Source of the DNA: Nemertoderma westbladi
Lineage: Eukaryota > Animalia > Xenacoelomorpha
NCBI GenBank assembly: GCA_032718475.1
Contig: JAUCBJ010001615.1
Location: 1 to 42,757 of the forward strand
Direction: 5' to 3'
DNA: 42,757 bases
A model generated the notes under the pieces. That model ran no database searches and was not told the origin of the DNA. It was given only the letters and a program-made list of their open reading frames with translations. The stretch's first letter is position 1. Every line of letters starts with the position of its first letter. Position numbers and translations under genes: made by a program. Below are positions 15,476 through 41,483 of this stretch, piece by piece.

Positions 15476-15544
15476 CTAAGGGGAAAATTTTAATTAAACT
15501 TTCCTACAAGAATCACATGTGCGTATTTCATACCTTGGCAAAAG

Positions 15545-17860
15545 AACTTACTGTACGTGTAAAGGGTTAACTTACTGTACGTGTAAAGGGCTAACTTACT
15601 GTACGTGTAAAGGGCTAACTTACTGTACGTGTAAAGGGTTAACTTACTGTACGTGTAAAGGGTTAACTTACTGTACGTGTAAAGGGTTAACTTACTGTAC
15701 GTGTAAAGGGTTAACTTACTGTACGTGTAAAGGGTTAACTTACTGTACGTGTAAAGGGTTAACTTACTGTACGTGTAAAGGGTTAACTTACTGTACTTGT
15801 AAGGGGTTAACTTACTGTACGTGTAAAGGGTTAACTTACTGTACGTGTAAAGGGTTAACTTACTGTACGTGTAAAGGGTTAACTTACTGTACGTGTGAAG
15901 GGTTAACTTACTGTACGTGTAAAGGGTTAACTTACTGTACGTGTAAAGGGTTAACTTACTGTACGTGTAAAGGGTTAACTTACTGTACGTGTAAAGGGTT
16001 AACTTACTGTACGTGTAAAGGGTTAACTTACTGTACGTGTAAAGGGTTAACTTACTGTACGTGTAAAGGGTTAACTTACTGTACGTGTAAAGGGCTAACT
16101 TACTGTACGTGTAAAGGGTTAACTTACTGTACGGAACGTGTAAAGGGTTAACTTACTGTACGTGTAAAGGGTTAACTTACTGTACGTGTAAAGGGTTAAC
16201 TTACTGTACGTGTAAAGGTTAACTTACTGTACGTGTAAAGGGTTAACTTACTGTACGTGTAAAGGGTTAGTGTAAAGGGTTAACTTACTATACGTGTAAA
16301 GGGTTAACTTACTGTACGTGTAAAGGGTTAACTTACTGTACGTGTAAAGGGTTAACTTACTGTACGTGGAAAGGGTTAACTTACTGTACGTGTAAAGGGT
16401 TAACTTACTGTACGTGTAAATGGTTAACTTACTGTACATGTAAAGGGTTAACTTACTGTACCTGTAAAGGGTTAACTTACTGTACGTGTAAAGGGTTAAC
16501 TTACTGTACGTGTAAAGGGTTAAATTACTGTACGTGTAAAGGGTTAACTTACTGTACGTGTAAAGGGTTAACTTACTGTACGTGTAAAGGGTTAACTTAC
16601 TGTACGTGTAAAGGGTTAACTTACTGTACGTGTAAAGGGTTAACTTACTGTAAGTGTAAAGGGTTAACTTACCGTACGTGTAAAGGGTTAACTTACTGTA
16701 CTTGTTGTAAAGGGTTAACTTACTGTACGTGTAAAGGGTTAACTTACTGTACGTGTAAAGGGTTAACTTACTGTACGTGTAAAGGGTTACCTTACTGTAC
16801 GTGTAAAGGGTTAACTTACTGTACGTGTAAGGGTTAACTTACTGTACGTGTAAAGGGTTAACTTACTGTACGTGTAAAGGGTTAACTTACTGTACGTGTA
16901 AAGGGTTAACTTACTGTACTTGTAAAGGGTTAACTTACTGTACGTGTAAAGGGTTAACTTACTGTACGTATTAAGGGTTAACTTACTGTAAAGGGCTAAC
17001 TTACTGTACGTGTAAAGGGTTAACTTACTGTACGTGTAAAGGGTTAGTGTAAAGGGTTAACTTACTGTACTTGTAAAGGGTTAACTTACTGTACGTGTAA
17101 AGGGCTAACTTACTGTACGTGTAAAGGGTTAACTTACTGTACGTGTAAAGGGTTAACTTACTGTACGTGTAAAGGGTCAACTTACTGTGCGTGCAAAGGG
17201 TTAGTGTAAAGGGTTAACTTACTGTACGTGTAAAGGGTTAACTTACTGTACGTGTAAAGGGTTAACTTACTGTACGTGTAAAGGGTTAACTTACTGTACG
17301 TGTAAAGGGTTAACTTACTGTGCTTGCAAAGGGTTAGTGTAAAGGGTTAACTTATTGTACGTGTAAAGGGCTAACTTACTGTACGTGTAAGGGTTAACTT
17401 ACTGTACGTGTAAAGGGTTAACTTACTGTACGTGTAAAGGGTTAACTTACTGTACGTGTAAAGGGTTAACTTACTGTACGTGTAAAGGGTTAGTGTAAAG
17501 GGTTAACTTACTGTACTTGTAAAGGGTTAACTTACTGTACGTGTAAAGGGCTAACTTACTGTACGTGTAAAGGGTTAACTTACTGTACGTGTACAGGGTT
17601 AACTTACTGTACGTGTAAAGGGTTAACTTACTGTACGTGTAAAGGGTTAGTGTAAAGGGTTAACTTACTGTACGTGTAAAGGGTTAACTTACTGTACGTG
17701 TAAAGGGTTAACTTACTGTACGCGTAAAGGGCTAACTTACTGTACGTGTAAAGGGTTAACTTACTGTACGTGTAAAGGGTTAACTTACTGTACGTGTAAA
17801 GGGTTAACTTACTGTACGTGTAAAGGGTTAACGTACTGTACGTGTAAATGGTTAACTTAC
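15545..17860 (-). repeat. 24-bp satellite (plus: CTTACTGTACGTGTAAAGGGTTAA; minus: GTAAGTTAACCCTTTACACGTACA), ~95 copies
   Basis: Highly homogeneous tandem array; gives the (LTYCTCKG)n pseudo-ORF 15519-16151. Confidence 0.98.
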
Positions 17861-17984
17861 AGGCGGCAATGTGAATGAAAATGTCGGAGTTACAATCTTG
17901 ATACATAATTAAGTAAAATGATTTACTGAATTTAAGTACTTGTGTAGGCCTATAGATACTAGATTACTTCTTGAATTCCTACTC

Positions 17985-20900
17985 TTTGAACACCTCCAGT
18001 GGTTCCTCCCTACCTGTATAGATATCCTATTACGCATTTCATTGTTTGAACTCCTCCAATGTGGTTCCTCCCTACCTGTATAGATATACTAGTACACTTT
18101 TCTTTGAACTCCTCCTGTGTAGTTCCTCCCTACCTGTATAGATACTAGTACACTTTTCTTTGAAGGCCTCCAGTGGTTCCTCCCTACCGGTATAGATATA
18201 CTAGTACACTTTTCTTTGATCTCCTCCAGTGGTTCCTCCCTACATGTATAGATATACTAGTACACTTTTCTTTGACCTCCTCCAGTGGTTCCTCCCTACC
18301 TGTATAGATATACTAGTACACTTTTCTTTGATCTCCTCCAGTGGTTCCTCCCTACCTGTATAGATATACTAGTACACTTTTCTTTGAACTCCTCCTGTGT
18401 AGTTCCTCCCTACCTGTATAGATACTAGTACACTTTTCTTTGAAGGCCTCCAGTGGTTCCTCCCTACCGGTATAGATATACTAGTACACTTTTCTTTGAC
18501 CTCCTCCAGTGGTCCCTCCCTACCTGTATATATATACTAGTACACTTTTCTTTGATCTCCTCCAGTGGTTCCTCCCTACCTGTATAGATATACTAGTACA
18601 CTTTTCTTTGACCTCCTCCAGTGGTTCCTCCCTACCTGTATAGATATACTAGTACACTTTTCTTTGAACTCCTCCAGTGGTTCCTCCCTACCTGTATAGA
18701 TATACTAGTACACTTTTCTTTGAACTCCTCCTGTGTAGTTCCTCCCTACCTGTATAGATACTAGTACACTTTTCTTTGAAGGCCTCCAGTGGTTGCTCCC
18801 TACCGGTATAGATATACTAGTACACTTTTCTTTGATCTCCTCCAGTGGTTCCTCCCTACCTGTATAGATATACTAGTACACTTTTCTTTGACCTCCTCCA
18901 GTGGTCCCTCCCTACCTGTATAGATATACTAGTACACTTTTCTTTGATCTCCTCCAGTGGTTCCTCCCTACCTGTATAGATATACTAGTACACTTTTCTT
19001 TGAACTCCTCCAGTGGTTGCTCCCTACCGGTATAGATATACTAGTAGTGTGGATGAGTTTCTTTGAACTCATCCAGTGGTTCCTTCCTACCTGTATAGAT
19101 ATACTAGTACACTTTTCTTTGAAGGCCTCCAGTGGTTCCTCCCTACCGGTATAGATATACTAGTACACTTTTCTTTGAACTCCTCCAGTGGTTCCTCCCT
19201 ACCTGTATAGATATACTAGTACACTTTTCTTTGAACTCCTCCAGTGGTTCCTCCCTATCGGTATAGATATACTAGTACACTTTTCTTTGACCGCCTCCAG
19301 TGGTTCCTCCCTACCGGTATAGATATACTAGTACACTTTTCTTTGACCTCCTCCAGTGGTCCCTCCCTACCTGTATAGATATACTAGTACACTTTTCTTT
19401 GATCTCCTCCAGTGGTTCCTCCCTACCTGTATAGATATACTAGTACACTTTTCTTTGAACTCCTCCAGTGGTCCCTCCCTACCTGTATAGATATACTAGT
19501 ACACTTTTCTTTGAACTCCTCCAGTGGTTGCTCCCTACCGGTATAGATATACTAGTAGTGTGGATGAGTTTCTTTGAACTCATCCAGTGGTTCCTTCCTA
19601 CCTGTATAGATATACTAGTACACTTTTCTTTGAAGGCCTCCAGTGGTTCCTCCCTACCGGTATAGATATACTAGTACACTTTTCTTTGAACTCCTCCAGT
19701 GGTTCCTTCCTACCTGTATAGATATACTAGTACACTTTTCTTTGAAGGCCTCCAGTGGTTCCTCCCTACCGGTATAGATATACTAGTACACTTTTCTTTG
19801 AACTCCTCCAGTGGTTCCTCCCTATCGGTATAGATATACTAGTACACTTTTCTTTGAACTCATCCAGTGGTTCCTTCCTACCTGTATAGATATACTAGTA
19901 CACTTTTCTTTGAAGGCCTCCAGTGGTTCCTCCCTACCGGTATAGATATACTAGTACACTTTTCTTTGACCGCCTCCAGTGGTTCCTCCCTACCGGTATA
20001 GATATACTAGTACACTTTTCTTTGACCTCCTCCAGTGGTCCCTCCCTACCTGTATAGATATACTAGTACACTTTTCTTTGACCTCCTCCAGTGGTTCTTC
20101 CCTACCGGTATAGATATCCTAGTACACTTTTCTTTGACCTCCTCCAGTGGTTCCTCCCTACCTGTATAGATATACTAGTACACTTTTCTTTGACTTCCTC
20201 CAGTGGTTCCTCCCTACCGGTATAGATATACTAGTACACTTTTCTTTGAACTCCTCCAGTGGTTCCTCCCTACCTGTATAGATACTAGTACACATTTCTT
20301 TGAACTCCTCCAGTGGTTCCTCCCTACCGGTATAGATATACTAGTACACTTTTCTTTGAACTCCTCCAGTGGTTCCTCCCTACCTGTATAGATACTTGTA
20401 CACCTTTCTTTGAACTCCTCCAGTGGTTCCTTCCTACCTGTATAGATATACTAGTACACTTTTCTTTGACCTCCTCCAGTGGTTCCTCCCTACCTGTATA
20501 GATATACTATTACACTTTTCTTTGAAGGCCTCCAGTGGTTCCTCCCTACCTGTATAGATATACTAGTACACTTTTCTTTGACCTGCTCCAGTGGTTCCTC
20601 CCTACCTGTATAGATACTAGTACACTTTTCTTTGAACTCCTCCAGTGGTCCCTCCCTACCTGTATAGATATACTAGTACATTTTTCTTTGACCTCCTCCA
20701 GTGGTTCTTCCCTACCGGTATAGATATCCTAGTACACCTTTCTTTGAACTCCTCCAGTGGTTCCTCCCTACCTGTATAGATATACTAGTACACTTTTCTT
20801 TGACCTTCTCCAGTGGTTTCTCCCTACCTGTATACACTAGATATACTAGTACACTTTTCTTTGATCTCCTCCAGTGGTTCCTCCCACCTGTATAGATATA

Positions 20901-23900
20901 CTAGTGCACTTTTCTTTGACCTCCTCCAGTGGTTTCTCCCTACCTGTATAGATATACTAGTACACTTTTCTTTGACCTCCTCCAGTGGTTTCTCCCTACC
21001 TGTATAGATAGATATACTAGTACACTTTTCTTTGACCTGCTCCAGTGGTTCCTCCCTACCTGTATAGATACTAGTACACTTTTCTTTGAACTCCTCCAGT
21101 GGTCCCTCCCTACCGGTATAGATATACTAGTACACTTTTCTTTGAACTCCTCCAGTGGTTTCTCCCTACCTGTATAGATATACTAGTACACTTTTCTTTG
21201 AACTCCTCCAGTGGTTTCTCCCTACCTGTATAGATATACTAGTACACTTTTCTTTGAACTCCTCCAGTGGTTTCTCCCTACCTGTATAGATATACTAGTA
21301 CACTTTTCTTTGAACTCCTCCAGTGGTTTCTCCCTACCTGTATAGATATACTAGTACACTTTTCTTTGAAGGCCTCCAGTGGTTCCTCCCTACCTGTACA
21401 CTTTTCTTTGATCTCCTCCAGTGGTTTCTCCCTACCTGTATAGATAGATATACTAAGTACACTTTTCTTTGACCTCCTCCAGTGGTTTCTCCCTACCTGT
21501 ATAGATATACTAGTACACTTTTCTTTGAACTCCTCCAGTGGTTCCTCCCTACCTGTATAGATATACTACAGTGTTACACTTTTCTTTGAAGGCCTCCAGT
21601 GGTTCCTCCATGCCTGTATAGATATACTAGTACACTTTTCTTTGACCTCCTCCAGTGGTTTCTCCCTACCTGTATAGATATACTAGTACACTTTTCTTTG
21701 ACCTCCTCCAGTGGTTTCTCCCTACCTGTATAGATATACTAGTACACTTTTCTTTGAAGGCCTCCAGTGGTTCCTCCCTACCTGTATAGATATACTAGTA
21801 CACTTTTCTTTGACCTCCTCCAGTGGTTTCTCCCTACCTGTATAGATAGTACACTTTTCTTTGACCTCCTCCAGTGGTTTCTCCCTACCTGTATATATAT
21901 ACTAGTACACTTTTCTTTGACCTCCTCCAGTGGTTTCTCCCTACCTGTATAGATATACTAGTACACTTTTTTTGACCTCCTCCAGTGGTTTCTCCCTACC
22001 TGTATAGATATACTAGTACACTTTTCTTTGAAGGCCTCCAGTGGTTCCTCCCTACCTGTATAGATATACTAGTACACTTTTCTTTGACCTCCTCCAGTGG
22101 TTTCTCCCTACCTGTATAGATAGTACACTTTTCTTTGACCTCCTCCAGTGGTTTCTCCCTACCTGTATAGATATACTAGTACACTTTTCTTTGAACTCCT
22201 CCAGTGGTTTCTCCCTACCTGTATAGATAGATATACTAAGTACACTTTTCTTTGACCTCCTCCAGTGGTTTCTCCCTACCTGTATAGATATACTAGTACA
22301 CTTTTCTTTGATCTCCTCCAGTGGTTCCTCCCACCTGTATAGATATACTAGTACACTTTTCTTTGAACTCCTCCAGTGGTTCCTCCCTACCTGTATATAT
22401 ATACTACAGTATTACACTTTTCTTTGAAGGCCTCCAGTGGTTCCTCCATGCCTGTATAGATATACTAGTACACTTTTCGTTGACCTCCTCCAGTGGTTTC
22501 TCCCTACCTGTATAGATATACTAGTACACTTTTCTTTGACCTCCTCCAGTGGTTTCTCCCTACCTGTATAGATATACTAGTACACTTTTCTTTGACCTCC
22601 TCCAGTGGTTTCTCCCTACCTGTATAGATATACTAGTACACTTTTCTTTGACCTGCTCCAGTGGTTCCTCCCTACCTGTATAGATATACTAGTACACTTT
22701 TCTTTGACCTCCTCCAGTGGTTTCTCCCTACCTGTATAGATATACTAGTACACTTTTCTTTGACCTCCTCCAGTGGTTTCTCCCTACCTGTATAGATAGA
22801 TATACTAGTACACTTTTCTTTGAACTCATCCAGTGGTTCCTTCCTACCTGTATAGATAGATATACTAAGTACACTTTTCTTTGACCTCCTCCAGTGGTCC
22901 CTCCCTACCTGTATAGATATACTAGTACACTTTTCTTTGAAGGCCTCCAGTGGTTCCTCCCTACCGGTATAGATATACTAGTACACTTTTCTTTGACCTC
23001 CTCCAGTGGTTCCTCCCTACCTGTATAGATATACTATTACACTTTTCTTTGACCTCCTCCAGTGGTTTCTCCCTACCTGTATAGATATACTAGTACACTT
23101 TTCTTTGACCTCCTCCAGTGGTTTCTCCCTACCTGTATAGATAGATATACTAGTACACTTTTCTTTGAACTCATCCAGTGGTTCCTTCCTACCTGTATAG
23201 ATAGATGTACTAGTACACTTTTCTTTGACCTCCTCCAGTGGTTCCTCCCTACCTGTATAGATATACTATTACACTTTTCTTTGACCTCCTCCAGTGGTTT
23301 CTCCCTACCTGTATAGATATACTAGTACACTTTTCTTTGACCTCCTCCAGTGGTTTCTCCCTACCTGTATAGATATACTAGTACACTTTTCTTTGACCTC
23401 CTCCAGTGGTTTCTCCCTACCTGTATAGATATACTAGTACACTTTTCTTTGACCTCCTCCAGTGGTTTCTCCCTACCTGTATAGATATACTAGTACACTT
23501 TTCTTTGAAGGCCTCCAGTGGTTCCTCCCTACCTGTATAGATATACTAGTACACTTTTCTTTGACCTCCTCCAGTGGTTTCTCCCTACCTGTATAGATAT
23601 ACTAGTACACTTTTCTTTGACCTCCTCCAGTGGTTTCTCCCTACCTGTATAGATATACTAGTACACTTTTCTTTGACCTCCTCCAGTGGTTTCTCCCTAC
23701 CTGTATAGATATACTAGTACACTTTTCTTTGAAGGCCTCCAGTGGTTCCTCCCTACCTGTATAGATATACTAGTACACTTTTCTTTGACCTCCTCCAGTG
23801 GTTTCTCCCTACCTGTATAGATATACTAGTACACTTTTCTTTGACCTCCTCCAGTGGTTCCTCCCTACCTGTATAGATATACTAGTGCACTTTTCTTTGA

Positions 23901-26900
23901 AGGCCTCCAGTGGTTTCTCCCTACCTGTATAGATAGTACACTTTTCTTTGACCTCCTCCAGTGGTTTCTCCCTACCTGTATAGATATACTAGTACACTTT
24001 TCTTTGACCTCCTCCAGTGGTTCCTCCCTACCTGTATAGATATACTAGTGCACTTTTCTTTGAAGGCCTCCAGTGGTTTCTCCCTACCTGTATAGATAGT
24101 ACACTTTTCTTTGACCTCCTCCAGTGGTTTCTCCCTACCTGTATAGATATACTAGTACACTTTTCTTTGACCTCCTCCAGTGGTTCCTCCCTACCTGTAT
24201 AGATATACTAGTGCACTTTTCTTTGAAGGCCTCCAGTGGTTTCTCCCTACCTGTATAGATAGTACACTTTTCTTTGACCTCCTCCAGTGGTTTCTCCCTA
24301 CCTGTATAGATATACTAGTACACTTTTCTTTGACCTCCTCCAGTGGTTCCTCCCTACCTGTATAGATATACTAGTGCACTTTTCTTTGAAGGCCTCCAGT
24401 GGTTCCTCCCTACCTGTATAGATATACTAGTACACTTTTCTTTGAACTCCTCTAGTGGTTCCTCCCTACCTGTATAGATATACTAGTACACTTTTCTTTG
24501 ACCTGCTCCAGTGGTTCCTCCCTACCTGTATAGATATACTAGTACACTTTTCTTTGAACTCATCCAGTGGTTCCTTCCTGCCTGTATAGATAGATATACT
24601 AGTACACTTTTCTTTGAATTCTTCCAGTGGTTCCTCCCTACCTGTATAGATACTAGTACACTTTTCTTTGAACTCCTCCAGTGGTTCCTTCCTACCTGTA
24701 TAGATAGATATACTAGTACACATTTCTTTGACCTCCTCCAGTGGTTTCTCCCTACCTGTATAGATACTAGTACACTTTTCTTTGAACTCCTCCAGTGGTT
24801 GCTCCCTACCGGTATAGATATAGTAGTAGTGTGGATGAGTTTCTTTGAACTCATCCAGTGGTTCCTTCCTACCTGTATAGATAGATATACTAGTACACTT
24901 TTCTTTGAAGGCCTCCAGTGGTTCCTCCCTACCGGTATAGATATACTAGTACACTTTTCTTTGACCTCCTCCAGTGGTTTCTCCCTACCGGTATAGATAT
25001 ACTAGTACACTTTTCTTTGAAGGCCTCTAGTGGTTCCTCCCTACCTGTATAGATATACTAGTACACCTTTCTTTGAACTCATCCAGTGGTTCCTCCCTAC
25101 CTGTATAGATATACTAGTACACTTTTCTTTGAAGGCCTCTAGTGGTTCCTCCCTACCTGTATAGATATACTAGTACACCTTTCTTTGAACTCATCCAGTG
25201 GTTCCTCCCTACCTGTATAGATAGATATACTAGTACACTTTTCTTTGAACTCCTCCAGTGGTTGCTCCCTACCGGTATAGATATACTAGTAGTGTGGATG
25301 AGTTTCTTTGAACTCATCCAGTGGTTCCTTCCTACCTGTATAGATAGATATACTAGTACACTTTTCTTTGAAGGCCTCCAGTGGTTCCTCCCTACCTGTA
25401 TAGATATACTAGTACACTTTTCTTTGATCTCCTCCAGTGGTTCCTCCCTACCTGTATAGATATACTAGTACACTTTTCTTTGATCTCCTCCAGTGGTTCC
25501 TCCCTACCTGTATAGATATACTAGTACACTTTTCTTTGACCTCCTCCAGTGGTTTCTCCCTACCGGTATAGATATACTAGTACACTTTTCTTTGAAGGCC
25601 TCTAGTGGTTCCTCCCTACCTGTATAGATATACTAGTACACCTTTCTTTGAACTCATCCAGTGGTTCCTCCCTACCTGTATAGATATACTAGTACACTTT
25701 TCTTTGAAGGCCTCTAGTGGTTCCTCCCTACCTGTATAGATATACTAGTACACCTTTCTTTGAACTCATCCAGTGGTTCCTCCCTACCTGTATAGATAGA
25801 TATACTAGTACACTTTTCTTTGAACTCCTCCAGTGGTTGCTCCCTACCGGTATAGATATACTAGTAGTGTGGATGAGTTTCTTTGAACTCATCCAGTGGT
25901 TCCTTCCTACCTGTATAGATAGATATACTAGTACACTTTTCTTTGAAGGCCTCCAGTGGTTCCTCCCTACCTGTATAGATATACTAGTACACTTTTCTTT
26001 GACCTCCTCCAGTGGTTCCTCCTTACCTGTATAGATATACTAGTACACTTTTCTTTGAAGGCCTCCAGTGGTTCCTCCCTACCTGTATAGATATACTAGT
26101 ACACTTTTCTTTGAAGGTCTCCAGTGGTTCCTCCCTACCTGTATAGATATACTAGTACACTTTTCTTTGACCTCCTCCAGTGGTTCCTCCCTACCGGTAT
26201 AGATATACTAGTACACTTTTCTTTGAAGGCCTCCAGTGGTTCCTCCTTACCTGTATAGATATACTAGTACACTTTTCTTTGAACTCCTCCAGTGGTTCCT
26301 CCCTACCGATATAGATATACTAGTACACTTTTCTTTGAAGGCCTCCAGTGGTTCCTCCCTACCTGTATAGATATACTAGTACACTTTTCTTTGACCTCCT
26401 CCAGTGGTTCCTCCCTACCTGTATAGATACTAGTACACTTTTCTTTGAACTCATCCAGTGGTTCCTTCCTGCCTGTATAGATATACTAGTACACGTTTCT
26501 TTGACCTCCTCAAGTGGTTCCTTCCTGCCTGTATAGATATACTAGTACACGTTTCTTTGACCTCCTCAAGTGGTTCCTTCCTGCCTGTATAGATATACTA
26601 GTACACTTTTCTTTGAAGGCCTCCAGTGGTTCCTCCCTACCGGTATAGATATACTAGTACACGTTTCTTTGACCTCCTCAAGTGGTTCCTTCCTGCCTGT
26701 ATAGATATACTAGTACACTTTTCTTTGAAGGCCTCCAGTGGTTCCTCCCTACCGGTATAGATATACTAGTACACGTTTCTTTGACCTCCTCAAGTGGTTC
26801 CTTCCTGCCTGTATAGATATACTAGTACACTTTTCTTTGAATTCCTCCAGTGGTTCCTCCCTACCTGTATAGATATACTAGTACACTTTTCTTTGACCTC

Positions 26901-29900
26901 CTCCAGTGGTTTCTCCCTACCTGTATAGATATACTAGTACACTTTTCTTTGAAGGCCTCCAGTGGTTCCTCCCTACCGGTATAGATATACTAGTACACGT
27001 TTCTTTGACCTCCTCAAGTGGTTCCTTCCTGCCTGTATAGATATACTAGTACACGTTTCTTTGAGCTCCTCAAGTGGTTCCTTCCTGCCTGTATAGATAT
27101 ACTAGTACACTTTTCTTTGAAGGCCTCCAGTGGTTCCTCCCTACCTGTATAGATATACTAGTACACGTTTCTTTGACCTCCTCAAGTGGTTCCTCCCTAC
27201 CGGTATAGATATACTAGTACACTTTTCTTTGACCTCCTCCAGTGGTTCCTCCCTACCGGTATAGATATACTAGTACACGTTTCTTTGACCTCCTCAAGTG
27301 GTTCCTTCCTGCCTGTATAGATATACTAGTACACGTTTCTTTGACCTCCTCAAGTGGTTCCTTCCTGCCTGTATAGATATACTAGTACACTTTTCTTTGA
27401 ACTCATCCAGTGGTTCCTTCCTACCTGTATAGATACTAGTACACTTTTCTTTGAACTCCTCCAGTGGTCCCTCCCTACCTGTATAGATAGATGTACTAGT
27501 ACACTTTTCTTTGAACTCCTCCAGTGGTTCCTCCCTACCTGTATAGATACTTGTACACTTTTCTTAGAACTCCTCCAGTGGTTCCTTCCTACCTGTATAG
27601 ATATACTAGTACACTTTTCTTTGACCTCCTCTAGTGGTTCCTCCGTACCTGTATAGATATACTAGTACACTTTTCTTTGACCTCCTCCAGTGGTTCCTCC
27701 CTACCTGTATAGATATACTCGTACACTTTTCTTTGAAGGCCTCCAGTGGTTCCTCCTTACCTGTATAGATATACTAGTACACTTTTCTTTGAACTCATCC
27801 AGTGGTTCCTTCCTACCTGTATAGATACTAGTACACTTTTCTTAGAACTCCTCCAGTGGTTCCTCCCTACCGGTATAGATATACTAGTACACTTTTCTTT
27901 GAACTCATCCAGTGGTTCCTTCCTACCTGTATAGATACTAGTACACTTTTCTTTGACCTCCTCCAGTGGTCCCTCCCTACCTGTATAGATAGATGTACTA
28001 GTACACTTTTCTTTGAACTCCTCCAGTGGTTCCTCCCTACCTGTATAGATACTTGTACACTTTTCTTAGAACTCCTCCAGTGGTTCCTTCCTACCTGTAT
28101 AGATATACTAGTACACTTTTCTTTGAACTCCTCCAGTGGTTCCTCCCTACCTATATAGATATACTAGTACACTTTTCTTTGACCTCCTCCAGTGGTTTCT
28201 CCCTACCTGTATAGATATACTAGTACACTTTTCTTTGACCTCCTCCAGTGGTTCCTCCCTACCTATATAGATATACTAAGTACACTTTTCTTTGACCTCC
28301 TCCAGTGGTTCCTCCCTACCTGTATAGATACCAGTACACTTTTCTTTGAACTCCTCTAGTGGTTCCTCCCTACCTGTATAGATATACTAGTACACTTTTC
28401 TTAGAACTCCTCCAGTGGTTCCTCCCTACCGGTATAGATATACTAGTACACTTTTCTTTGAACTCCTCCAGTGGTTCCTCCCTACCTATATAGATATACT
28501 AAGTACACTTTTCTTTGACCTCCTCCAGTGGTTCCTCCCTACCTGTATAGATACCAGTACACTTTTCTTTGAACTCCTCTAGTGGTTCCTCCCTACCTGT
28601 ATAGATATACTAGTACACTTTTCTTTGAACTCCTCCAGTGGTTCCTCCCTATCGGTATAGATATACTAGTACACTTTTCTTTGACCTCCTCCAGTGGTTT
28701 CTCCCTACCTGTATAGATACTAGTACACTTTTCTTTGAATTCCTCCAGTGGTTCCTCCCTACCTGTATAGATATACTAGTACACTTTTCTTTGAACTCCT
28801 CCAGTGGTTCCTCCCTATCGGTATAGATATACTAGTACACTTTTCTTTGAACTCCTCCAGTGGTTCCTCCCTACCTGTATAGATACTTGTACACTTCTTA
28901 GAACTCCTCCAGTGGTTCCTCCCTACCTATATAGATATACTAGTACACTTTTCTTTGACCTGCTCCAGTGGTTCCTCCCTACCTGTATAGATACCAGTAC
29001 ACTTTTCTTTGAACTCCTCTAGTGGTTCCTCCCTACCTGTATAGATATACTAGTACACTTTTCTTTGAACTCCTCCAGTGGTTCCTCCCTATCGGTATAG
29101 ATATACTAGTACACTTTTCTTTGAACTCCTCCAGTGGTTCCTCCCTACCTGTATAGATACTTGTACACTTTTCTTAGAACTCCTCCAGTGGTTCCTTCCT
29201 ACCTGTATAGATATACTAGTACACTTTTCTTTGAACTCCTCCAGTGGTTCCTCCCTACCTATATAGATATACTAGTACACATTTCTTTGATCTCCTCCAG
29301 TGGTTCCTCCCTCCCTGTATAGATATACTAGTACACTTTTCTTTGATCTCCTCCAGTGGTTCCTCCCTACCTGTATAGATACTTGTACACTTTTCTTTGA
29401 ACTCCTCCAGTGGTTCCTCCCTACCTGTATAGATATACTACAGTATTACACTTTTCTTTGAAGGCCTCCAGTGGTTCCTCCCTACCTGTATAGATATACT
29501 AGTACACTTTTCTTTGAACTCATCCAGTGGTTCCTTCCTGCCTGTATAGATAGATATACTAGTACACTTTTCTTTGAATTCTTCCAGTGGTTCCTCCCTA
29601 CCTGTATAGATACTAGTACACTTTTCTTTGAACTCCTCCAGTGGTTCCTTCCTACCTGTATAGATAGATATACTAGTACACATTTCTTTGACCTCCTCCA
29701 GTGGTTTCTCCCTACCTGTATAGATACTAGTACACTTTTCTTTGAACTCCTCCAGTGGTTGCTCCCTACCGGTATAGATATAGTAGTAGTGTGGATGAGT
29801 TTCTTTGAACTCATCCAGTGGTTCCTTCCTACCTGTATAGATAGATATACTAGTACACTTTTCTTTGAAGGCCTCCAGTGGTTCCTCCCTACCGGTATAG

Positions 29901-32900
29901 ATATACTAGTACACTTTTCTTTGACCTCCTCCAGTGGTTTCTCCCTACCGGTATAGATATACTAGTACACTTTTCTTTGAAGGCCTCTAGTGGTTCCTCC
30001 CTACCTGTATAGATATACTAGTACACCTTTCTTTGAACTCATCCAGTGGTTCCTCCCTACCTGTATAGATATACTAGTACACTTTTCTTTGAAGGCCTCT
30101 AGTGGTTCCTCCCTACCTGTATAGATATACTAGTACACCTTTCTTTGAACTCATCCAGTGGTTCCTCCCTACCTGTATAGATAGATATACTAGTACACTT
30201 TTCTTTGAACTCCTCCAGTGGTTGCTCCCTACCGGTATAGATATACTAGTAGTGTGGATGAGTTTCTTTGAACTCATCCAGTGGTTCCTTCCTACCTGTA
30301 TAGATAGATATACTAGTACACTTTTCTTTGAAGGCCTCCAGTGGTTCCTCCCTACCTGTATAGATATACTAGTACACTTTTCTTTGATCTCCTCCAGTGG
30401 TTCCTCCCTACCTGTATAGATATACTAGTACACTTTTCTTTGATCTCCTCCAGTGGTTCCTCCCTACCTGTATAGATATACTAGTACACTTTTCTTTGAC
30501 CTCCTCCAGTGGTTTCTCCCTACCGGTATAGATATACTAGTACACTTTTCTTTGAAGGCCTCTAGTGGTTCCTCCCTACCTGTATAGATATACTAGTACA
30601 CCTTTCTTTGAACTCATCCAGTGGTTCCTCCCTACCTGTATAGATATACTAGTACACTTTTCTTTGAAGGCCTCTAGTGGTTCCTCCCTACCTGTATAGA
30701 TATACTAGTACACCTTTCTTTGAACTCATCCAGTGGTTCCTCCCTACCTGTATAGATAGATATACTAGTACACTTTTCTTTGAACTCCTCCAGTGGTTGC
30801 TCCCTACCGGTATAGATATACTAGTAGTGTGGATGAGTTTCTTTGAACTCATCCAGTGGTTCCTTCCTACCTGTATAGATAGATATACTAGTACACTTTT
30901 CTTTGAAGGCCTCCAGTGGTTCCTCCCTACCTGTATAGATATACTAGTACACTTTTCTTTGACCTCCTCCAGTGGTTCCTCCTTACCTGTATAGATATAC
31001 TAGTACACTTTTCTTTGAAGGCCTCCAGTGGTTCCTCCCTACCTGTATAGATATACTAGTACACTTTTCTTTGAAGGTCTCCAGTGGTTCCTCCCTACCT
31101 GTATAGATATACTAGTACACTTTTCTTTGACCTCCTCCAGTGGTTCCTCCCTACCGGTATAGATATACTAGTACACTTTTCTTTGAAGGCCTCCAGTGGT
31201 TCCTCCTTACCTGTATAGATATACTAGTACACTTTTCTTTGAACTCCTCCAGTGGTTCCTCCCTACCGATATAGATATACTAGTACACTTTTCTTTGAAG
31301 GCCTCCAGTGGTTCCTCCCTACCTGTATAGATATACTAGTACACTTTTCTTTGACCTCCTCCAGTGGTTCCTCCCTACCTGTATAGATACTAGTACACTT
31401 TTCTTTGAACTCATCCAGTGGTTCCTTCCTGCCTGTATAGATATACTAGTACACGTTTCTTTGACCTCCTCAAGTGGTTCCTTCCTGCCTGTATAGATAT
31501 ACTAGTACACGTTTCTTTGACCTCCTCAAGTGGTTCCTTCCTGCCTGTATAGATATACTAGTACACTTTTCTTTGAAGGCCTCCAGTGGTTCCTCCCTAC
31601 CGGTATAGATATACTAGTACACGTTTCTTTGACCTCCTCAAGTGGTTCCTTCCTGCCTGTATAGATATACTAGTACACTTTTCTTTGAAGGCCTCCAGTG
31701 GTTCCTCCCTACCGGTATAGATATACTAGTACACGTTTCTTTGACCTCCTCAAGTGGTTCCTTCCTGCCTGTATAGATATACTAGTACACTTTTCTTTGA
31801 ATTCCTCCAGTGGTTCCTCCCTACCTGTATAGATATACTAGTACACTTTTCTTTGACCTCCTCCAGTGGTTTCTCCCTACCTGTATAGATATACTAGTAC
31901 ACTTTTCTTTGAAGGCCTCCAGTGGTTCCTCCCTACCGGTATAGATATACTAGTACACGTTTCTTTGACCTCCTCAAGTGGTTCCTTCCTGCCTGTATAG
32001 ATATACTAGTACACGTTTCTTTGACCTCCTCAAGTGGTTCCTTCCTGCCTGTATAGATATACTAGTACACTTTTCTTTGAAGGCCTCCAGTGGTTCCTCC
32101 CTACCTGTATAGATATACTAGTACACGTTTCTTTGACCTCCTCAAGTGGTTCCTCCCTACCGGTATAGATATACTAGTACACTTTTCTTTGACCTCCTCC
32201 AGTGGTTCCTCCCTACCGGTATAGATATACTAGTACACGTTTCTTTGACCTCCTCAAGTGGTTCCTTCCTGCCTGTATAGATATACTAGTACACTTTTCT
32301 TTGACCTCCTCAAGTGGTTCCTCCCTACCTGTATAGATACCAGTACACTTTTCTTTGAACTCCTCTAGTGGTTCCTCCCTACCTGTATAGATATACTAGT
32401 ACACTTTTCTTTGAACTCATCCAGTGGTTCCTTCCTACCTGTATAGATACTAGTACACTTTTCTTTGAACTCCTCCAGTGGTCCCTCCCTACCTGTATAG
32501 ATAGATGTACTAGTACACTTTTCTTTGAACTCCTCCAGTGGTTCCTCCCTACCTGTATAGATACTTGTACACTTTTCTTAGAACTCCTCCAGTGGTTCCT
32601 TCCTACCTGTATAGATATACTAGTACACTTTTCTTTGACCTCCTCTAGTGGTTCCTCCGTACCTGTATAGATATACTAGTACACTTTTCTTTGACCTCCT
32701 CCAGTGGTTCCTCCCTACCTGTATAGATATACTCGTACACTTTTCTTTGAAGGCCTCCAGTGGTTCCTCCTTACCTGTATAGATATACTAGTACACTTTT
32801 CTTTGAACTCATCCAGTGGTTCCTTCCTACCTGTATAGATACTAGTACACTTTTCTTAGAACTCCTCCAGTGGTTCCTCCCTACCGGTATAGATATACTA

Positions 32901-35900
32901 GTACACTTTTCTTTGAACTCATCCAGTGGTTCCTTCCTACCTGTATAGATACTAGTACACTTTTCTTTGACCTCCTCCAGTGGTCCCTCCCTACCTGTAT
33001 AGATAGATGTACTAGTACACTTTTCTTTGAACTCCTCCAGTGGTTCCTCCCTACCTGTATAGATACTTGTACACTTTTCTTAGAACTCCTCCAGTGGTTC
33101 CTTCCTACCTGTATAGATATACTAGTACACTTTTCTTTGAACTCCTCCAGTGGTTCCTCCCTACCTGTATAGATATACTAGTACACTTTTCTTTGACCTC
33201 CTCCAGTGGTTTCTCCCTACCTGTATAGATATACTAGTACACTTTTCTTTGACCTCCTCCAGTGGTTCCTCCCTACCTATATAGATATACTAAGTACACT
33301 TTTCTTTGACCTCCTCCAGTGGTTCCTCCCTACCTGTATAGATACCAGTACACTTTTCTTTGAACTCCTCTAGTGGTTCCTCCCTACCTGTATAGATATA
33401 CTAGTACACTTTTCTTAGAACTCCTCCAGTGGTTCCTCCCTACCGGTATAGATATACTAGTACACTTTTCTTTGAACTCCTCCAGTGGTTCCTCCCTACC
33501 TATATAGATATACTAAGTACACTTTTCTTTGACCTCCTCCAGTGGTTCCTCCCTACCTGTATAGATACCAGTACACTTTTCTTTGAACTCCTCTAGTGGT
33601 TCCTCCCTACCTGTATAGATATACTAGTACACTTTTCTTTGAACTCCTCCAGTGGTTCCTCCCTATCGGTATAGATATACTAGTACACTTTTCTTTGACC
33701 TCCTCCAGTGGTTTCTCCCTACCTGTATAGATACTAGTACACTTTTCTTTGAATTCCTCCAGTGGTTCCTCCCTACCTGTATAGATATACTAGTACACTT
33801 TTCTTTGAACTCCTCCAGTGGTTCCTCCCTATCGGTATAGATATACTAGTACACTTTTCTTTGAACTCCTCCAGTGGTTCCTCCCTACCTGTATAGATAC
33901 TTGTACACTTCTTAGAACTCCTCCAGTGGTTCCTCCCTACCTATATAGATATACTAGTACACTTTTCTTTGACCTGCTCCAGTGGTTCCTCCCTACCTGT
34001 ATAGATACCAGTACACTTTTCTTTGAACTCCTCTAGTGGTTCCTCCCTACCTGTATAGATATACTAGTACACTTTTCTTTGAACTCCTCCAGTGGTTCCT
34101 CCCTATCGGTATAGATATACTAGTACACTTTTCTTTGAACTCCTCCAGTGGTTCCTCCCTACCTGTATAGATACTTGTACACTTTTCTTAGAACTCCTCC
34201 AGTGGTTCCTTCCTACCTGTATAGATATACTAGTACACTTTTCTTTGAACTCCTCCAGTGGTTCCTCCCTACCTATATAGATATACTAGTACACATTTCT
34301 TTGATCTCCTCCAGTGGTTCCTCCCTCCCTGTATAGATTTACTAGTACACTTTTCTTTGATCTCCTCCAGTGGTTCCTCCCTACCTGTATAGATACTTGT
34401 ACACTTTTCTTTGAACTCCTCCAGTGGTTCCTCCCTACCTGTATAGATATACTACAGTATTACACTTTTCTTTGAAGGCCTCCAGTGGTTCCTCCCTACC
34501 TGTATAGATATACTAAGTACACTTTTCTTTGACCTCCTCGAGTGGTTCCTCCCTACCTGTATAGATATACTAGTACACTTTTCTTTGAAGGCCTCCAGTG
34601 GTTCCTCCATGCCTGTATAGATATACTAGTACACTTTTCTTTGAAGGCCTCCAGTGGTTCCTCCCTACCTGTATAGATATACTACAGTATTACACTTTTC
34701 TTTGAAGGCCTCCAGTGGTTCCTCCCTACCTGTATAGATATACTAAGTACACTTTTCTTTGACCTCCTCAAGTGGTTCCTCCCTACCTGTATAGATATAC
34801 TAGTACACTTTTTTTTGAAGGCCTCCAGTGGTTCCTCCCTAGCTGTATAGATATACTAGTACACTTTTCTTTGACCTCCTCAAGTGGTTCCTCCCTACCT
34901 GTATAGATATACTAGTACACTTTTCTTTGACCTCCTCAAGTGGTTCCTCCCTACCTGTATAGATACTAGTACACTTTTCTTTGACTTCCTCAAGTGGTTC
35001 CTCCCTACCTGTATAGATATACTAAGTACACTTTTCTTTGAAGGCCTCCAGTGGTTCCTCCCTACCTGTATAGATATACTAGTACACTTTTCTTTGAAGG
35101 CCTCCAGTGGTTCCTCCCTACCTGTATAGATATACTAGTACACTTTTCTTTGAAGGCCTCCTGTGTAGTTCCTCCCTACCTGTATAGATATACTAGTACA
35201 CTTTTCTTTGAAGGCCTCCAGTGGTTCCTCCATGCCTGTATAGATATACTAAGTACACTTTTCTTTGACCTCCTCAAGTGGTTCCTCCCTACCTGTATAG
35301 ATATACTAGTACACTTTTCTTTGACCTCCTCAAGTGGTTCCTCCCTACCTGTATAGATATACTAGTACACTTTTCTTTGACCTCCTCAAGTGGTTCCTCC
35401 CTACCTGTATAGATACTAGTACACTTTTCTTTGACTTCCTCAAGTAGTTCCTCCCTACCTGTATAGATATACTAGTACACTTTTCTTTGACCTCCTCAAG
35501 TGGTTCCTCCCTACCTGTATAGATACTAGTACACTTTTCTTTGACTTCCTCAAGTGGTCCCTCCCTACCTGTATAGATATACTTGTACACTTTTCTTTGA
35601 ACTCCTCCAGTGGTTCCTCCCTACCTGTATAGATACTAGTACACTTTTCTTTGACTTCCTCAAGTGGTTCCTCCCTACCTGTATAGATATACTAAGTACA
35701 CTTTTCTTTGAAGGCCTCCAGTGGTTCCTCCCTACCTGTATAGATATACTAGTACACTTTTCTTTGAAGGCCTCCAGTGGTTCCTCCCTACCTGTATAGA
35801 TATACTACAGTATTACACTTTTCTTTGAAGGCCTCCAGTGGTTCCTCCCTACCTGTATAGATATACTAAGTACACTTTTCTTTGACCTCCTCAAGTGGTT

Positions 35901-38900
35901 CCTCCCTACCTGTATAGATATACTAGTACACTTTTCTTTGAAGGCCTCCAGTGGTTCCTCCCTAGCTGTATAGATATACTAGTACACTTTTCTTTGACCT
36001 CCTCAAGTGGTTCCTCCCTACCTGTATAGATATACTAGTACACTTTTCTTTGACCTCCTCAAGTGGTTCCTCCCTACCTGTATAGATACTAGTACACTTT
36101 TCTTTGACTTCCTCAAGTGGTTCCTCCCTACCTGTATAGATATACTAAGTACACTTTTCTTTGAAGGCCTCCAGTGGTTCCTCCCTACCTGTATAGATAT
36201 ACTAGTACACTTTTCTTTGAAGGCCTCCAGTGGTTCCTCCCTACCTGTATAGATATACTAAGTACACTTTTCTTTGACCTCCTCAAGTGGTTCCTCCCTA
36301 CCTGTATAGATATACTAGTACACTTTTCTTTGAAGGCCTCCAGTGGTTCCTCCCTACCTGTATAGATATACTAGTACACTTTTCTTTGACCTCCTCAAGT
36401 GGTTCCTCCCTACCTGTATAGATATACTAGTACACTTTTCTTTGACCTCCTCAAGTGGTTCCTCCCTACCTGTATAGATACTAGTACACTTTTCTTTGAC
36501 TTCCTCAAGTGGTTCCTCCCTACCTGTATAGATATACTAGTACACTTTTCTTTGAAGGCCTCCAGTGGTTCCTCCCTACCTGTATAGATATACTAGTACA
36601 CTTTTCTTTGAAGGCCTCCAGTGGTTCCTCCCTACCTGTATAGATATACTAGTACACTTTTCTTTGAAGGCCTCCAGTGGTTCCTCCCTACCTGTATAGA
36701 TATACTAGTACACTTTTCTTTGAAGGCCTCCAGTGGTTCCTCCCTACCTGTATAGATATACTAGTACACTTTTCTTTGAAGGCCTCCAGTGGTTCCTCCC
36801 TACCTGTATAGATATACTAGTACACTTTTCTTTGAAGGCCTCCAGTGGTTCCTCCCTACCTGTATAGATATACTAGTACACTTTTCTTTGAAGGCCTCCA
36901 GTGGTTCCTCCCTACCTGTATAGATATACTAGTACACTTTTCTTTGAAGGCCTCCAGTGGTTCCTCCCTACCTGTATAGATATACTAGTACACTTTTCTT
37001 TGAAGGCCTCCAGTGGTTCCTCCCTACCTGTATAGATATACTAGTACACTTTTCTTTGAAGGCCTCCAGTGGTTCCTCCCTACCTGTATAGATATACTAG
37101 TACACTTTTCTTTGAAGGCCTCCAGTGGTTCCTCCCTACCTGTATAGATATACTAGTACACTTTTCTTTGACCTCCTCAAGTGGTTCCTCCCTACCTGTA
37201 TAGATACTAGTACACTTTTCTTTGACTTCCTCAAGTGGTTCCTCCCTACCTGTATAGATATACTAGTACACTTTTCTTTGAAGGCCTCCAGTGGTTCCTC
37301 CCTACCTGTATAGATATACTAGTACACTTTTCTTTGAAGGCCTCCAGTGGTTCCTCCCTACCTGTATAGATATACTAGTACACTTTTCTTTGACCTCCTC
37401 AAGTGGTTCCTCCCTACCTGTATAGATATACTAGTACACTTTTCTTTGAAGGCCTCCAGTGGTTCCTCCCTACCTGTATAGATATACTAGTACACTTTTC
37501 TTTGACCTCCTCAAGTGGTTCCTCCCTACCTGTATAGATATACTAGTACACTTTTCTTTGACCTCCTCAAGTGGTTCCTCCCTACCTGTATAGATACTAG
37601 TACACTTTTCTTTGACTTCCTCAAGTGGTTCCTCCCTACCTGTATAGATATACTAAGTACACTTTTCTTTGAAGGCCTCCAGTGGTTCCTCCCTACCTGT
37701 ATAGATATACTAGTACACTTTTCTTTGAAGGCCTCCAGTGGTTCCTCCCTACCTGTATAGATATACTAGTACACTTTTCTTTGAAGGCCTCCAGTGGTTC
37801 CTCCCTACCTGTATAGATATACTAGTACACTTTTCTTTGAAGGCCTCCAGTGGTTCCTCCCTACCTGTATAGATATACTAGTACACTTTTCTTTGAAGGC
37901 CTCCAGTGGTTCCTCCCTACCTGTATAGATATACTAGTACACTTTTCTTTGAAGGCCTCCAGTGGTTCCTCCCTACCTGTATAGATATACTAGTACACTT
38001 TTCTTTGAAGGCCTCCAGTGGTTCCTCCCTACCTGTATAGATATACTAGTACACTTTTCTTTGAAGGCCTCCAGTGGTTCCTCCCTACCTGTATAGATAT
38101 ACTAGTACACTTTTCTTTGAAGGCCTCCAGTGGTTCCTCCCTACCTGTATAGATATACTAGTACACTTTTCTTTGAAGGCCTCCAGTGGTTCCTCCCTAC
38201 CTGTATAGATATACTAGTACACTTTTCTTTGAAGGCCTCCAGTGGTTCCTCCCTACCTGTATAGATATACTAGTACACTTTTCTTTGAAGGCCTCCAGTG
38301 GTTCCTCCCTACCTGTATAGATATACTAGTACACTTTTCTTTGAAGGCCTCCAGTGGTTCCTCCCTACCTGTATAGATATACTAGTACACTTTTCTTTGA
38401 AGGCCTCCAGTGGTTCCTCCCTACCTGTATAGATATACTAGTACACTTTTCTTTGAAGGCCTCCAGTGGTTCCTCCCTACCTGTATAGATATACTAGTAC
38501 ACTTTTCTTTGACCGGCCTCCAGTGGTTCCTCCCTACCTGTATAGATATACTAGTACACTTTTCTTTGAAGGCCTCCAGTGGTTCCTCCCTACCTGTATA
38601 GATATACTAGTACACTTTTCTTTGAAGGCCTCCAGTGGTTCCTCCCTACCTGTATAGATATACTAGTACACTTTTCTTTGAAGGCCTCCAGTGGTTCCTC
38701 CCTACCTGTATAGATATACTAGTACACTTTTCTTTGAAGGCCTCCAGTGGTTCCTCCCTACCTGTATAGATATACTAGTACACTTTTCTTTGAAGGCCTC
38801 CAGTGGTTCCTCCCTACCTGTATAGATATACTAGTACACTTTTCTTTGAAGGCCTCCAGTGGTTCCTCCCTACCTGTATAGATATACTAGTACACTTTTC

Positions 38901-40889
38901 TTTGACTTCCTCAAGTGGTTCCTCCCTACCTGTATAGATATACTAGTACACTTTTCTTTGAAGGCCTCCAGTGGTTCCTCCCTACCTGTATAGATATACT
39001 AGTACACTTTTCTTTGACTCCTCAAGTGGTTCCTCCCTACCTGTATAGATATACTAGTACACTTTTCTTTGAAGGCCTCCAGTGGTTCCTCCCTACCTGT
39101 ATAGATATACTAGTACACTTTTCTTTGAAGGCCTCCAGTGGTTCCTCCCTACCTGTATAGATATACTAGTACACTTTTCTTTGAAGGCCTCCAGTGGTTC
39201 CTCCCTACCTGTATAGATATACTAGTACACTTTTCTTTGAAGGCCTCCAGTGGTTCCTCCCTACCTGTATAGATATACTAGTACACTTTTCTTTGAAGGC
39301 CTCCAGTGGTTCCTCCCTACCTGTATAGATATACTAGTACACTTTTCTTTGAACTCCTCCAGTGGTTCCTCCCTACCTGTATAGATATACTAGTACACTT
39401 TTCTTTGACCTCCTCCAGTGGTTCCTCCCTACCTGTATAGATATACTAGTACACTTTTCTTTGAACTCCTCCAGTGGTTCCTCCCTACCTGTATAGATAT
39501 ACTAGTACACTTTTCTTTGACGTCCTCCAGTGGTTCCTCCCTACCTGTATAGATATACTAGTACACTTTTCTTTGAAGGCCTCCAGTGGTTCCTCCCTAC
39601 CTGTATAGATATACTAGTACACTTTTCTTTGAAGGCCTCCAGTGGTTCCTCCCTACCTGTATAGATATACTAGTACACTTTTCTTTGAAGGCCTCCAGTG
39701 GTTCCTCCCTACCTGTATAGATATACTAGTACACTTTTCTTTGAAGGCCTCCAGTGGTTCCTCCCTACCTGTATAGATATACTAGTACACTTTTCTTTGA
39801 AGGCCTCCAGTGGTTCCTCCCTACCTGTATAGATATACTAGTACACTTTTCTTTGAAGGCCTCCAGTGGTTCCTCCCTACCTGTATAGATATACTAGTAC
39901 ACTTTTCTTTGAAGGCCTCCAGTGGTTCCTCCCTACCTGTATAGATATACTAGTACACTTTTCTTTGAAGGCCTCCAGTGGTTCCTCCCTACCTGTATAG
40001 ATATACTAGTACACTTTTCTTTGAAGGCCTCCAGTGGTTCCTCCCTACCTGTATAGATATACTAGTACACTTTTCTTTGAAGGCCTCCAGTGGTTCCTCC
40101 CTACCTGTATAGATATACTAGTACACTTTTCTTTGAAGGCCTCCAGTGGTTCCTCCCTACCTGTATAGATATACTAGTACACTTTTCTTTGAAGGCCTCC
40201 AGTGGTTCCTCCCTACCTGTATAGATATACTAGTACACTTTTCTTTGAAGGCCTCCAGTGGTTCCTCCCTACCTGTATAGATATACTAGTACACTTTTCT
40301 TTGAAGGCCTCCAGTGGTTCCTCCCTACCTGTATAGATATACTAGTACACTTTTCTTTGAAGGCCTCCAGTGGTTCCTCCCTACCTGTATAGATATACTA
40401 GTACACTTTTCTTTGAACTCCTCCAGTGGTTCCTCCCTACCTGTATAGATATACTAGTACACTTTTCTTTGAAGGCCTCCAGTGGTTCCTCCCTACCTGT
40501 ATAGATATACTAGTACACTTTTCTTTGAAGGCCTCCAGTGGTTCCTCCCTACCTGTATAGATATACTAGTACACTTTTCTTTGAAGGCCTCCAGTGGTTC
40601 CTCCCTACCTGTATAGATATACTAGTACACTTTTCTTTGAAGGCCTCCAGTGGTTCCTCCCTACCTGTATAGATATACTAGTACACTTTTCTTTGAAGGC
40701 CTCCAGTGGTTCCTCCCTACCTGTATAGATATACTAGTACACTTTTCTTTGAAGGCCTCCAGTGGTTCCTCCCTACCTGTATAGATATACTAGTACACTT
40801 TTCTTTGAAGGCCTCCAGTGGTTCCTCCCTACCTGTATAGATATACTAGTACACTTTTCTTTGAAGGCCTCCAGTGGTTCCTCCATGCC
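17985..40889 (-). repeat. 56-bp satellite, ~400 copies (~22.9 kb); minus-strand unit GTAGG + GAGGAACCACTGGAGGCCTTCAAAGAAAAGTGTACTAGTATATCTATACAG
   Basis: Period 56 with 52/54/57/60-bp indel variants; the terminal copy is the coding end of DRC3 exon 40833-41012. Confidence 0.99.
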
Positions 40890-41012
40890 TGGTAACTGGT
40901 TGAATTTCCTCCCATCTGCATCCTCGCTATACAGCTCGTCATAAACATACGATCCGTTTAGTTTTTCAACGTAAGCTTCGATGTAAAGCTCCTGTTGTTT
41001 CGTATATTCATC
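40833..41012 (-). CDS. DRC3: DRC3/LRRC48 exon (DEYTKQQELYIEAYVEKLNGSYVYDELYSEDADGRKFNQLPGMEEPLEAFKEKCTSISIQ)
   Basis: tttctag| acceptor, CAG|gtaggg donor, 180 nt, phase 0-0; A.VE.LNGS...D..Y.ED..G.....LPG motif; joins in frame to LFEYGLKQ. Confidence 0.92.
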
Positions 41013-41329: not shown

Positions 41330-41483
41330 CATTTCCGCCCGGCGGCGATCCTCCGCTCTCTCATCCTCCCGAAGTTCTTCAATCGACGAACTATAAATCT
41401 TCTCTGCGGCTTCACGGGACGCCTCATCGACAAGTCGGAAATCAAAGAAAACTAGATACGGAAGATGAGCGATAGTGTAGTTC
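41330..41483 (-). CDS. DRC3: DRC3/LRRC48 exon (NYTIAHLPYLVFFDFRLVDEASREAAEKIYSSSIEELREDERAEDRRRAEM), LRR-cap region
   Basis: tttccag| acceptor phase 2, ATG|gttagt donor phase 0, 154 nt; LRRcap Y..Y.IA.LP.L...D motif. Confidence 0.88.

Follow-up and report, generated by a model that had tools for sequence, protein, structure and literature searches.

In a 42,757-nt contig of Nemertoderma westbladi (JAUCBJ010001615.1 of assembly GCA_032718475.1, hereafter the window), a 56-bp tandem array of 408 units occupies most of intron 3 of a gene identified by homology as DRC3 (LRRC48). The first unit of this array is the end of the preceding exon together with its 5' splice site (donor), and this first donor is used in the assembled transcript. 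The best explanation, to which we assign a probability of about 0.78, is that a tandem repeat headed by the exon end and its donor has expanded, that splicing chooses the first donor, and that the later copies are tolerated passengers. Four sequencing runs were examined as assembled contigs (X1-X4). None is recorded as RNA, and X4 is labelled 'DNA?', yet it holds spliced and polyadenylated contigs. The features that carry the argument are as follows:

40833..41012, minus strand: DRC3 window exon 3, 180 nt, 60 codons, open; its 3' end is array unit 1
40827..40835, minus strand: authentic 5' splice site CAG|GTAGGG, a 7/9 match to the donor consensus; used in the X4 contig
15476..40832, minus strand: DRC3 intron 3, 25,357 nt, phase 0, GT..AG
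15314..15475, minus strand: DRC3 exon 4, joined to 40833 in the X4 contig
17983..40891, minus strand: 56-bp tandem array, 408 units (Tandem Repeats Finder and wrap-around parse)
24576..32267, minus strand: higher-order duplication within the 56-bp array, lag of 88-89 units (about 4.96 kb)

Donor used in the assembled transcript

A 2004-nt contig of X4 (depth 269.4) skipped introns 1, 2 and 4 at GT..AG boundaries. Its letters 922-1100 corresponded to window positions 40833-41011 with 1 differing letter, and its letters 760-923 to positions 15314-15477; the exon 3 and exon 4 matches were taken as one contig on the basis of equal length and depth. The two pieces overlapped by two letters, the AG, and position 40833 is therefore joined directly to 15475 with no unit added. 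No X4 contig covered 40800-40832 (bin depth 134.7, half of 269.4), and no extended exon 3 form was seen among the X4 contigs. These results demonstrated that the first donor is used in the assembled transcript. Unit 1 is present in this spliced contig, in the conserved DRC3 frame, in agreement with the statement of an earlier sequence-only reading that the first monomer is protein coding.

Anatomy of the 56-bp array

Tandem Repeats Finder returned one array at 17983-40891 (period 56, 407.6 copies, 91% matches), and a wrap-around parse against the first unit resolved 408 units with 123 distinct sequences, 292 of the units being exactly 56 nt long. Unit 1 consists of the final 51 nt of exon 3 (EEPLEAFKEKCTSISIQ, 17 codons) plus GTAGG, an exon share of 51/56 nt (91%). 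The sequence-only reading had described the monomer in these terms and had counted about 400 copies, in agreement with the parse. Its statement that each junction is identical was too broad: 305/408 units end in CAGGTAGG (CAG|GTAGG), whereas the 17-mer junction that it quoted ends only 226/408, and identity to the exon copy over the full 56 nt is limited to 82/408, the exon copy included. The other 103 junctions no longer read CAGGTAGG, in 55 cases through loss of the A of AG, and CAGGCATG, the exon form, is present at four array junctions. Drift was unevenly distributed along the array. The first 87 junctions all keep CAGGTAGG, and 63 of the first 80 units equal the exon copy; from unit 121 onward there are 0-4 exon-identical units per 40, and distal units carry about 4-5 changes each relative to the exon copy. 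A 2,787-nt block recurs about 4.96 kb away with 1 substitution, which may reflect a recent duplication or an assembly effect.

Intron 3 contains 304 later CAG|GTAGG donors, 277 of which share the 9-mer of the authentic donor and 81 of which are preceded by at least 51 bases identical to those upstream of it. In a palindrome test of the repeat units, 2 of 5 came near significance (7 and 16 of 300 shuffles) and the 56-mer did not (47/300). Metagenome contigs gave 0 matches to a 32-nt piece of the unit, a result uninformative about the animal's own genome.

Summed contig depth on the unit reached 13,420 in X1, 11,354 in X2 and 1,500 in X3 (DNA runs, two samples), compared with unique-flank depths of about 2.5-3.8, 24-26 and 8.4-9.7, respectively. 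Summed contig depth is no copy number, and the unit/flank ratios, which vary widely among X1, X2 and X3 and even inside one sample, are not copy numbers either. A unit-to-unit tandem junction was visible in X2 as a loose end. Because the unit stands at very high depth in DNA runs of two samples, the array was not invented by assembly. X2 and X3 depart from the window sequence at numerous positions in the flanks and therefore derive from another individual, and X1 may be the source sample.

Identity of the host gene

Eight DRC3 exons lie in the window, all on the minus strand, with the earlier exons outside it. In addition to exons 3 and 4, they are:

42383..42504, minus strand: DRC3 window exon 1, leucine-rich repeat region (homology and transcript contig)
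41330..41483, minus strand: DRC3 window exon 2 (homology and transcript contig)
9878..10000, minus strand: DRC3 window exon 5 (homology and transcript contig)
7222-7073, 5409-5257 and 5100-4975 (with stop), minus strand: DRC3 window exons 6-8 (homology model, no reads)

The spliced model gave a 389-residue open frame to the stop, with seven GT..AG introns of 899, 317, 25,357, 5,313, 2,655, 1,663 and 156 nt. In an alignment to sloth DRC3, 171/392 columns were identical, all 8 exons fell in order, and the array junction was free of gaps. The exon 7 search returned 12 protein matches, of which 10 were named DRC3 or LRRC48-like and 2 were unnamed. An HMMER search with exon 3 gave 27 matches, and 10 of these were checked by name (5 DRC3 or LRRC48, 1 other protein, 4 unnamed); a word-index search with the same exon matched 0/11 candidates. 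By homology, then, the host gene is DRC3, as the sequence-only reading had named it. Unit 1 encodes conserved DRC3 residues in frame and without a gap, and the array therefore began at this locus. P0045, from another 2004-nt contig, is bat-like DRC3 and not a transcript of the locus studied here.

Twelve of the 27 exon 3 matches (P0016, P0018-P0021, P0023, P0026, P0030, P0033, P0034, P0037, P0039) are short open reading frames (ORFs) from other organisms with Tyr-Pro at the equivalent place (window about 40858-40868). They fit read-through into the donor of a minor (U12-type) intron, as judged by the usual consensus of such donors. DRC3 of the window is without an intron at this place. Its introns fall at residues 92, 152, 206 and 247, positions that differ from those inferred, from proteins only, for other animals, in the unspliced ORFs of which homology ends near residues 142, 199 and 243, with a frequent start near 105. 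The idea that repeats moved the introns found no specific link; the position of intron 2 differs too, yet this intron is without a donor repeat. A rewriting of the coding copy by the array was likewise unsupported. Two thirds of the array units carry another codon at the exon's Glu-Ala pair, while the exon itself has the pair of sloth DRC3 and unit 1 in X4 is unchanged.

Choice of the first donor and predicted cost of the later ones

Scored against the donor consensus, 308 later sites matched at 7/9 positions and 6 at 8/9, compared with 7/9 for the authentic donor. The authentic donor is no stronger than these later sites, and donor strength therefore cannot explain the choice. Folding of 4 units did not clearly outdo shuffles (z -1.87; 10/200 shuffles as good), which leaves structural masking of the later donors unsupported. 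With neither strength nor a clear folding mask to account for it, position remains as the explanation.

The later donors were joined in silico to the real intron 3 acceptor. All 304 CAG|GTAGG donors led to a premature stop, which in 303 cases lay inside the added sequence and in 1 case (donor 2) in exon 4, in line with the frame argument of the sequence-only reading. Every one of these stops lay >50 nt ahead of the last junction. Under the usual rule of nonsense-mediated decay, a stop >50 nt before the last junction leads to degradation of the RNA. RNA from later donors would thus be degraded, and steady-state RNA therefore understates leakage.

We propose that the spliceosome is committed to whichever donor comes first behind a defined exon (exon definition, or first-come choice). 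The sequence-only reading had named a pick of the first copy through exon definition as one of two possibilities, and exon definition or first-come choice is the likely means, as tested for human F7 (PMC1557585). The approximately 400 later copies would then be neutral passengers, and any use of a later donor would end in a premature stop and decay, lowering the cost of the array further. As for its origin, the donor region of an existing intron may have been duplicated between two similar 8-mers 56 nt apart: the exon carries CAGGCATG right before unit 1 and CAGGTAGG at its end, at a spacing of 56 nt, a pair that is a likely template for slippage or crossover. The duplicated pair would have expanded by slippage or unequal crossing-over, followed by homogenisation near the exon and the recent duplication of the 5-kb block. 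The intron probably predates the array, because the unit holds intron bases unlike the start of exon 4 and because 2.5 kb separate the array from the acceptor. A gain of the intron by duplicating an exonic proto-splice site in tandem (for the mechanism, see PMC2891723) was rejected, as the GTAGG of the unit is not the start of exon 4.

Several points weigh against this explanation. Splicing is documented by a single contig of a single run; contigs lose rare forms, and decay would hide mis-spliced RNA. The 22.9-kb length of the array rests on the assembly alone, and its near-identical 2.8-kb block could be an assembly duplication. The X1 depth ratio far exceeds 408, so copies of the unit may lie elsewhere in the genome. 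Human 6-16 and CBS also use the next two donors (as cited in PMC1557585). In X3, an 856-nt contig (record 18) matches 40855-40914 perfectly over 60 bases and then diverges; it could stem from an insertion allele, from a second partial copy or from filtering.

Alternative explanations

In recursive splicing, exon 3 would be joined first to an array AG|GT, the donor would be regenerated, and the 25-kb intron would be removed stepwise, each unit acting as a cryptic RS-exon of about 56 nt. The sequence-only reading had pointed to the recursive form of the junctions, and in this it was right: 304 later CAG|GTAGG sites juxtapose AG and GT in the 25,357-nt intron. Their 56-nt spacing resembles the cryptic RS-exons of about 50 nt in Drosophila (PMC8605326), and the final mRNA would be identical to the one-step product (PMC6110457), so the X4 contig is compatible with both routes. 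The stepwise removal that the sequence-only reading had offered as an alternative found no support. The 17 nt before the unit AG had a pyrimidine fraction of 0.53, equal to the median of 374 background AGs; among the 7 real DRC3 acceptors, on which this crude comparison rests, 5 were higher, 1 was equal and 1 was even less pyrimidine-rich (0.41). The AG-free stretch was 11 nt at the unit compared with at least 15 nt in 7/7 real acceptors, and a branch-motif test was non-discriminating, the motif being absent in 4/7 real acceptors too. Recursive sites of flies generally have strong joined motifs (PMC6110457). Moreover, AG|GT needs no special cause in this array, since exon 3 ends in CAG, and the drift of a quarter of the junctions, more than half of these cases without the A of AG, also speaks against a recursive function. 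We consider recursive splicing of intron 3 unlikely.

Similarly improbable is a tuning role, in which a share of transcripts uses donor 2 or beyond and is destroyed, with array length or sequence setting the DRC3 mRNA level. The premature stop from every later donor, the intact first 87 junctions and the partial next-donor use reported for 6-16 and CBS (cited in PMC1557585) would all suit such a role. Against it, the X4 contigs include no extended form, the identity of proximal units is equally expected from recent expansion of the exon copy, and there is no sign of selection on the array.

Least probable is that the unit belongs to a more dispersed satellite family or that assembly has inflated an array far shorter in the animal itself. 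An X1 summed depth ratio in the thousands, the block repeated with only 1 substitution, and the X3 contig that departs from the exon at 40914, together with the missing cover of X2 and X3 at 40932-41129 (a hole that proves nothing), could be read in this way; yet a unit that encodes conserved DRC3 residues in frame points to a beginning at this locus, a gradient of divergence over 123 distinct units is not easily produced by simple assembly error, and high unit depth was found in two samples, in sums that give no copy number.

Donor-spanning repeats in other introns

A donor test was applied per intron with each donor 17-mer (12 exon and 5 intron bases, at most 3 mismatches). Copies numbered 404 in intron 3, 61 in intron 5 and 2 in intron 4, with none in introns 1, 2, 6 and 7; the exon 3 donor 17-mer had no copy in the window outside intron 3. 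The further repeats in the gene are:

7248..9891, minus strand: donor-spanning array of intron 5, 38-bp unit (Tandem Repeats Finder and donor test)
15206..15332, minus strand: donor-spanning repeats of intron 4, 29-bp unit
15545..17860, minus strand: 24-bp array in intron 3, about 99 copies, unrelated to the 56-bp unit

The 38-bp unit joins the last 12 nt of exon 5 to 26 nt running from the donor to a pyrimidine-rich, acceptor-like end. Its array makes up 99% of intron 5, abuts both exons, and contains 28 exact AG|12 nt|GT predicted in-frame pseudo-exons. Each unit could pass for an in-frame micro-exon of 12 nt and a mini-intron of 26 nt (branch-like TTAAC, pyrimidine tract), and the real intron 5 acceptor resembles a decayed last unit. 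Intron 4 has two degenerate copies of the exon 4 end and donor, at +29 and +94. The 24-bp array, 9% of intron 3 beside the 90% of the 56-bp array, presents 90 GTAAGT donor-like hexamers on the DRC3 sense strand, none of them used in the X4 contig. In exon 2, a single degenerate copy of the acceptor and the first exon bases, 62 nt long, immediately precedes the real acceptor (41484-41550, minus strand), and the X4 contig uses the downstream acceptor.

In total, 3/7 DRC3 donors carry donor-spanning repeats, and two arrays account for about 68% of the 37.5 kb of the gene in the window. The donor of a neighbouring plus-strand gene at 4345 also has 2 copies within 300 nt. This donor region shares 12 letters with a second 24-bp array at window 100-386, and the case may be repeat-derived. 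As background, 1.3-1.4% of 4,772 sampled 17-mers per strand had such a copy. The excess at donors is suggestive, in a background that leaves the large arrays out and a window chosen for one of the cases. A bias of donors over acceptors was not significant (4/8 donors vs 1/8 acceptors, Fisher p 0.28).

As in lancelets, duplications of this kind are probably common in this genome. A bolder and rather doubtful proposal is that splice donors are a main birthplace of satellite DNA in this lineage, with frequent duplications that are tolerated owing to the constant success of the first donor and that drive intron expansion as they grow into arrays of several kilobases. If it holds, the locus tests first-come choice against >300 equal or stronger donors, and the 38-bp array is a latent stack of 28 in-frame 12-nt micro-exons.

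Neighbouring genes

An intact ELP3 (13367-15046, plus strand) lies antisense inside DRC3 intron 4. Its intron-free coding region encodes 559 aa with Pfam ELP3_N and radical SAM domains, and a polyadenylated 2443-nt X4 contig represents its transcript (12323-15122). A search with ELP3 listed at least 120 proteins at 61-81% identity, none of them a close named relative. The 5' loose end of this contig matches 4324-4340 on the plus strand exactly and uniquely, with a GT donor at 4346 and an AG acceptor at 12322; the call of this upstream exon rests on about 22 letters of the one contig. The exon concerned (4093-4345, plus strand) encodes a PEAR1/MEGF-like EGF domain (PF23301, E 2.4e-09) of a gene that converges on DRC3. 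The ELP3 transcript thus likely starts in an exon of the EGF-domain gene and runs antisense across DRC3 exons 5-8, and it may be a read-through or a two-ORF mRNA. In addition, the X4 ELP3 contig lacks 425 nt (12856-13280) that have a short direct repeat and not GT..AG at their bounds, which probably represents an insertion polymorphism of the 5' untranslated region.

Comparison with known systems

The closest published type is intron 7 of human F7, where the first unit of a 37-bp variable number tandem repeat spans the exon boundary; mutations revealed that the later identical donors are functional and that only the most upstream one is used (PMC1557585). The same source cites the 6-16, CBS, LMNB2 and PDGF minisatellites as similar. 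DRC3 shares the boundary-spanning first unit, the reiterated identical intronic donors and the use of the first. It differs in scale, with 408 units (22.9 kb) compared with 5-9 in F7 and 10-26 in the other four, in the exonic part of the unit (51/56 nt compared with 4/37 nt), and in its higher-order structure. The F7 donors were probed by mutation, whereas those of DRC3 are known from sequence and a contig.

Lancelet 'mirages' in globin, Adh3, troponin C and PGBD5 genes leave splicing undisturbed (PMC3087553, PMC3902484), and they resemble the DRC3 case in tandem boundary copies, an invertebrate host, several affected introns and concerted evolution. The lancelet repeats are smaller, with 3-6 units of 150-160 bp in the BflGb6 globin gene and 10-72 bp units in Adh3, compared with hundreds of units in DRC3. 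The boundary units of BflGb6 escape homogenisation, whereas the exon-proximal units of DRC3 are the most uniform.

In recursive sites, an acceptor motif abuts a donor motif, and both are generally strong (PMC8605326, PMC6110457). Like the ratchet points of Drosophila, the DRC3 array places AG|GT inside a long intron and has another donor some 50 nt further on, but its AG context is no better as an acceptor than that of background AGs. Ratchet points are few, conserved and bound segments of >1 kb, whereas DRC3 has hundreds of sites 56 nt apart. Human polyubiquitin UBC carries tandem dual-specific splice sites with an AGGT motif per repeat unit (PMC10809524), and the DRC3 array likewise has one AGGT per unit. 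The UBC units are in-frame coding monomers and spliced stochastically, whereas the DRC3 units, at 56 nt, shift the frame and lie in an intron, and the contig retains none of them.

The Drosophila genes kl-3 and kl-5 are axonemal genes. Their satellite-filled giant introns are megabase-sized (PMC6508621). DRC3 is also a gene of the ciliary axoneme with an intron that is mostly tandem repeat, but this intron measures 25 kb and is built from an exon end of the gene itself. Human paralogs with variable repeats at exon-intron boundaries have been catalogued (PMC2812944). No larger or exon-born array of comparable size was found in the literature, most subscription papers lying outside the search, and there was no sign of a new mechanism or element. 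The layout of donor-spanning repeats is already published; what is unusual here is the scale (3-26 units in the published cases compared) and the clustering in one gene. With three affected introns in a single gene, exon-intron junctions may commonly seed satellites and intron growth in this genome. DRC3 therefore stretches a known oddity more than 10-fold, setting one donor against >300 equal or better copies across 23 kb and still giving a clean transcript, and the locus provides a natural test of position-based 5' splice-site choice, of mis-splicing hidden by decay, and of whether recursive splicing can take place in AG|GT arrays.

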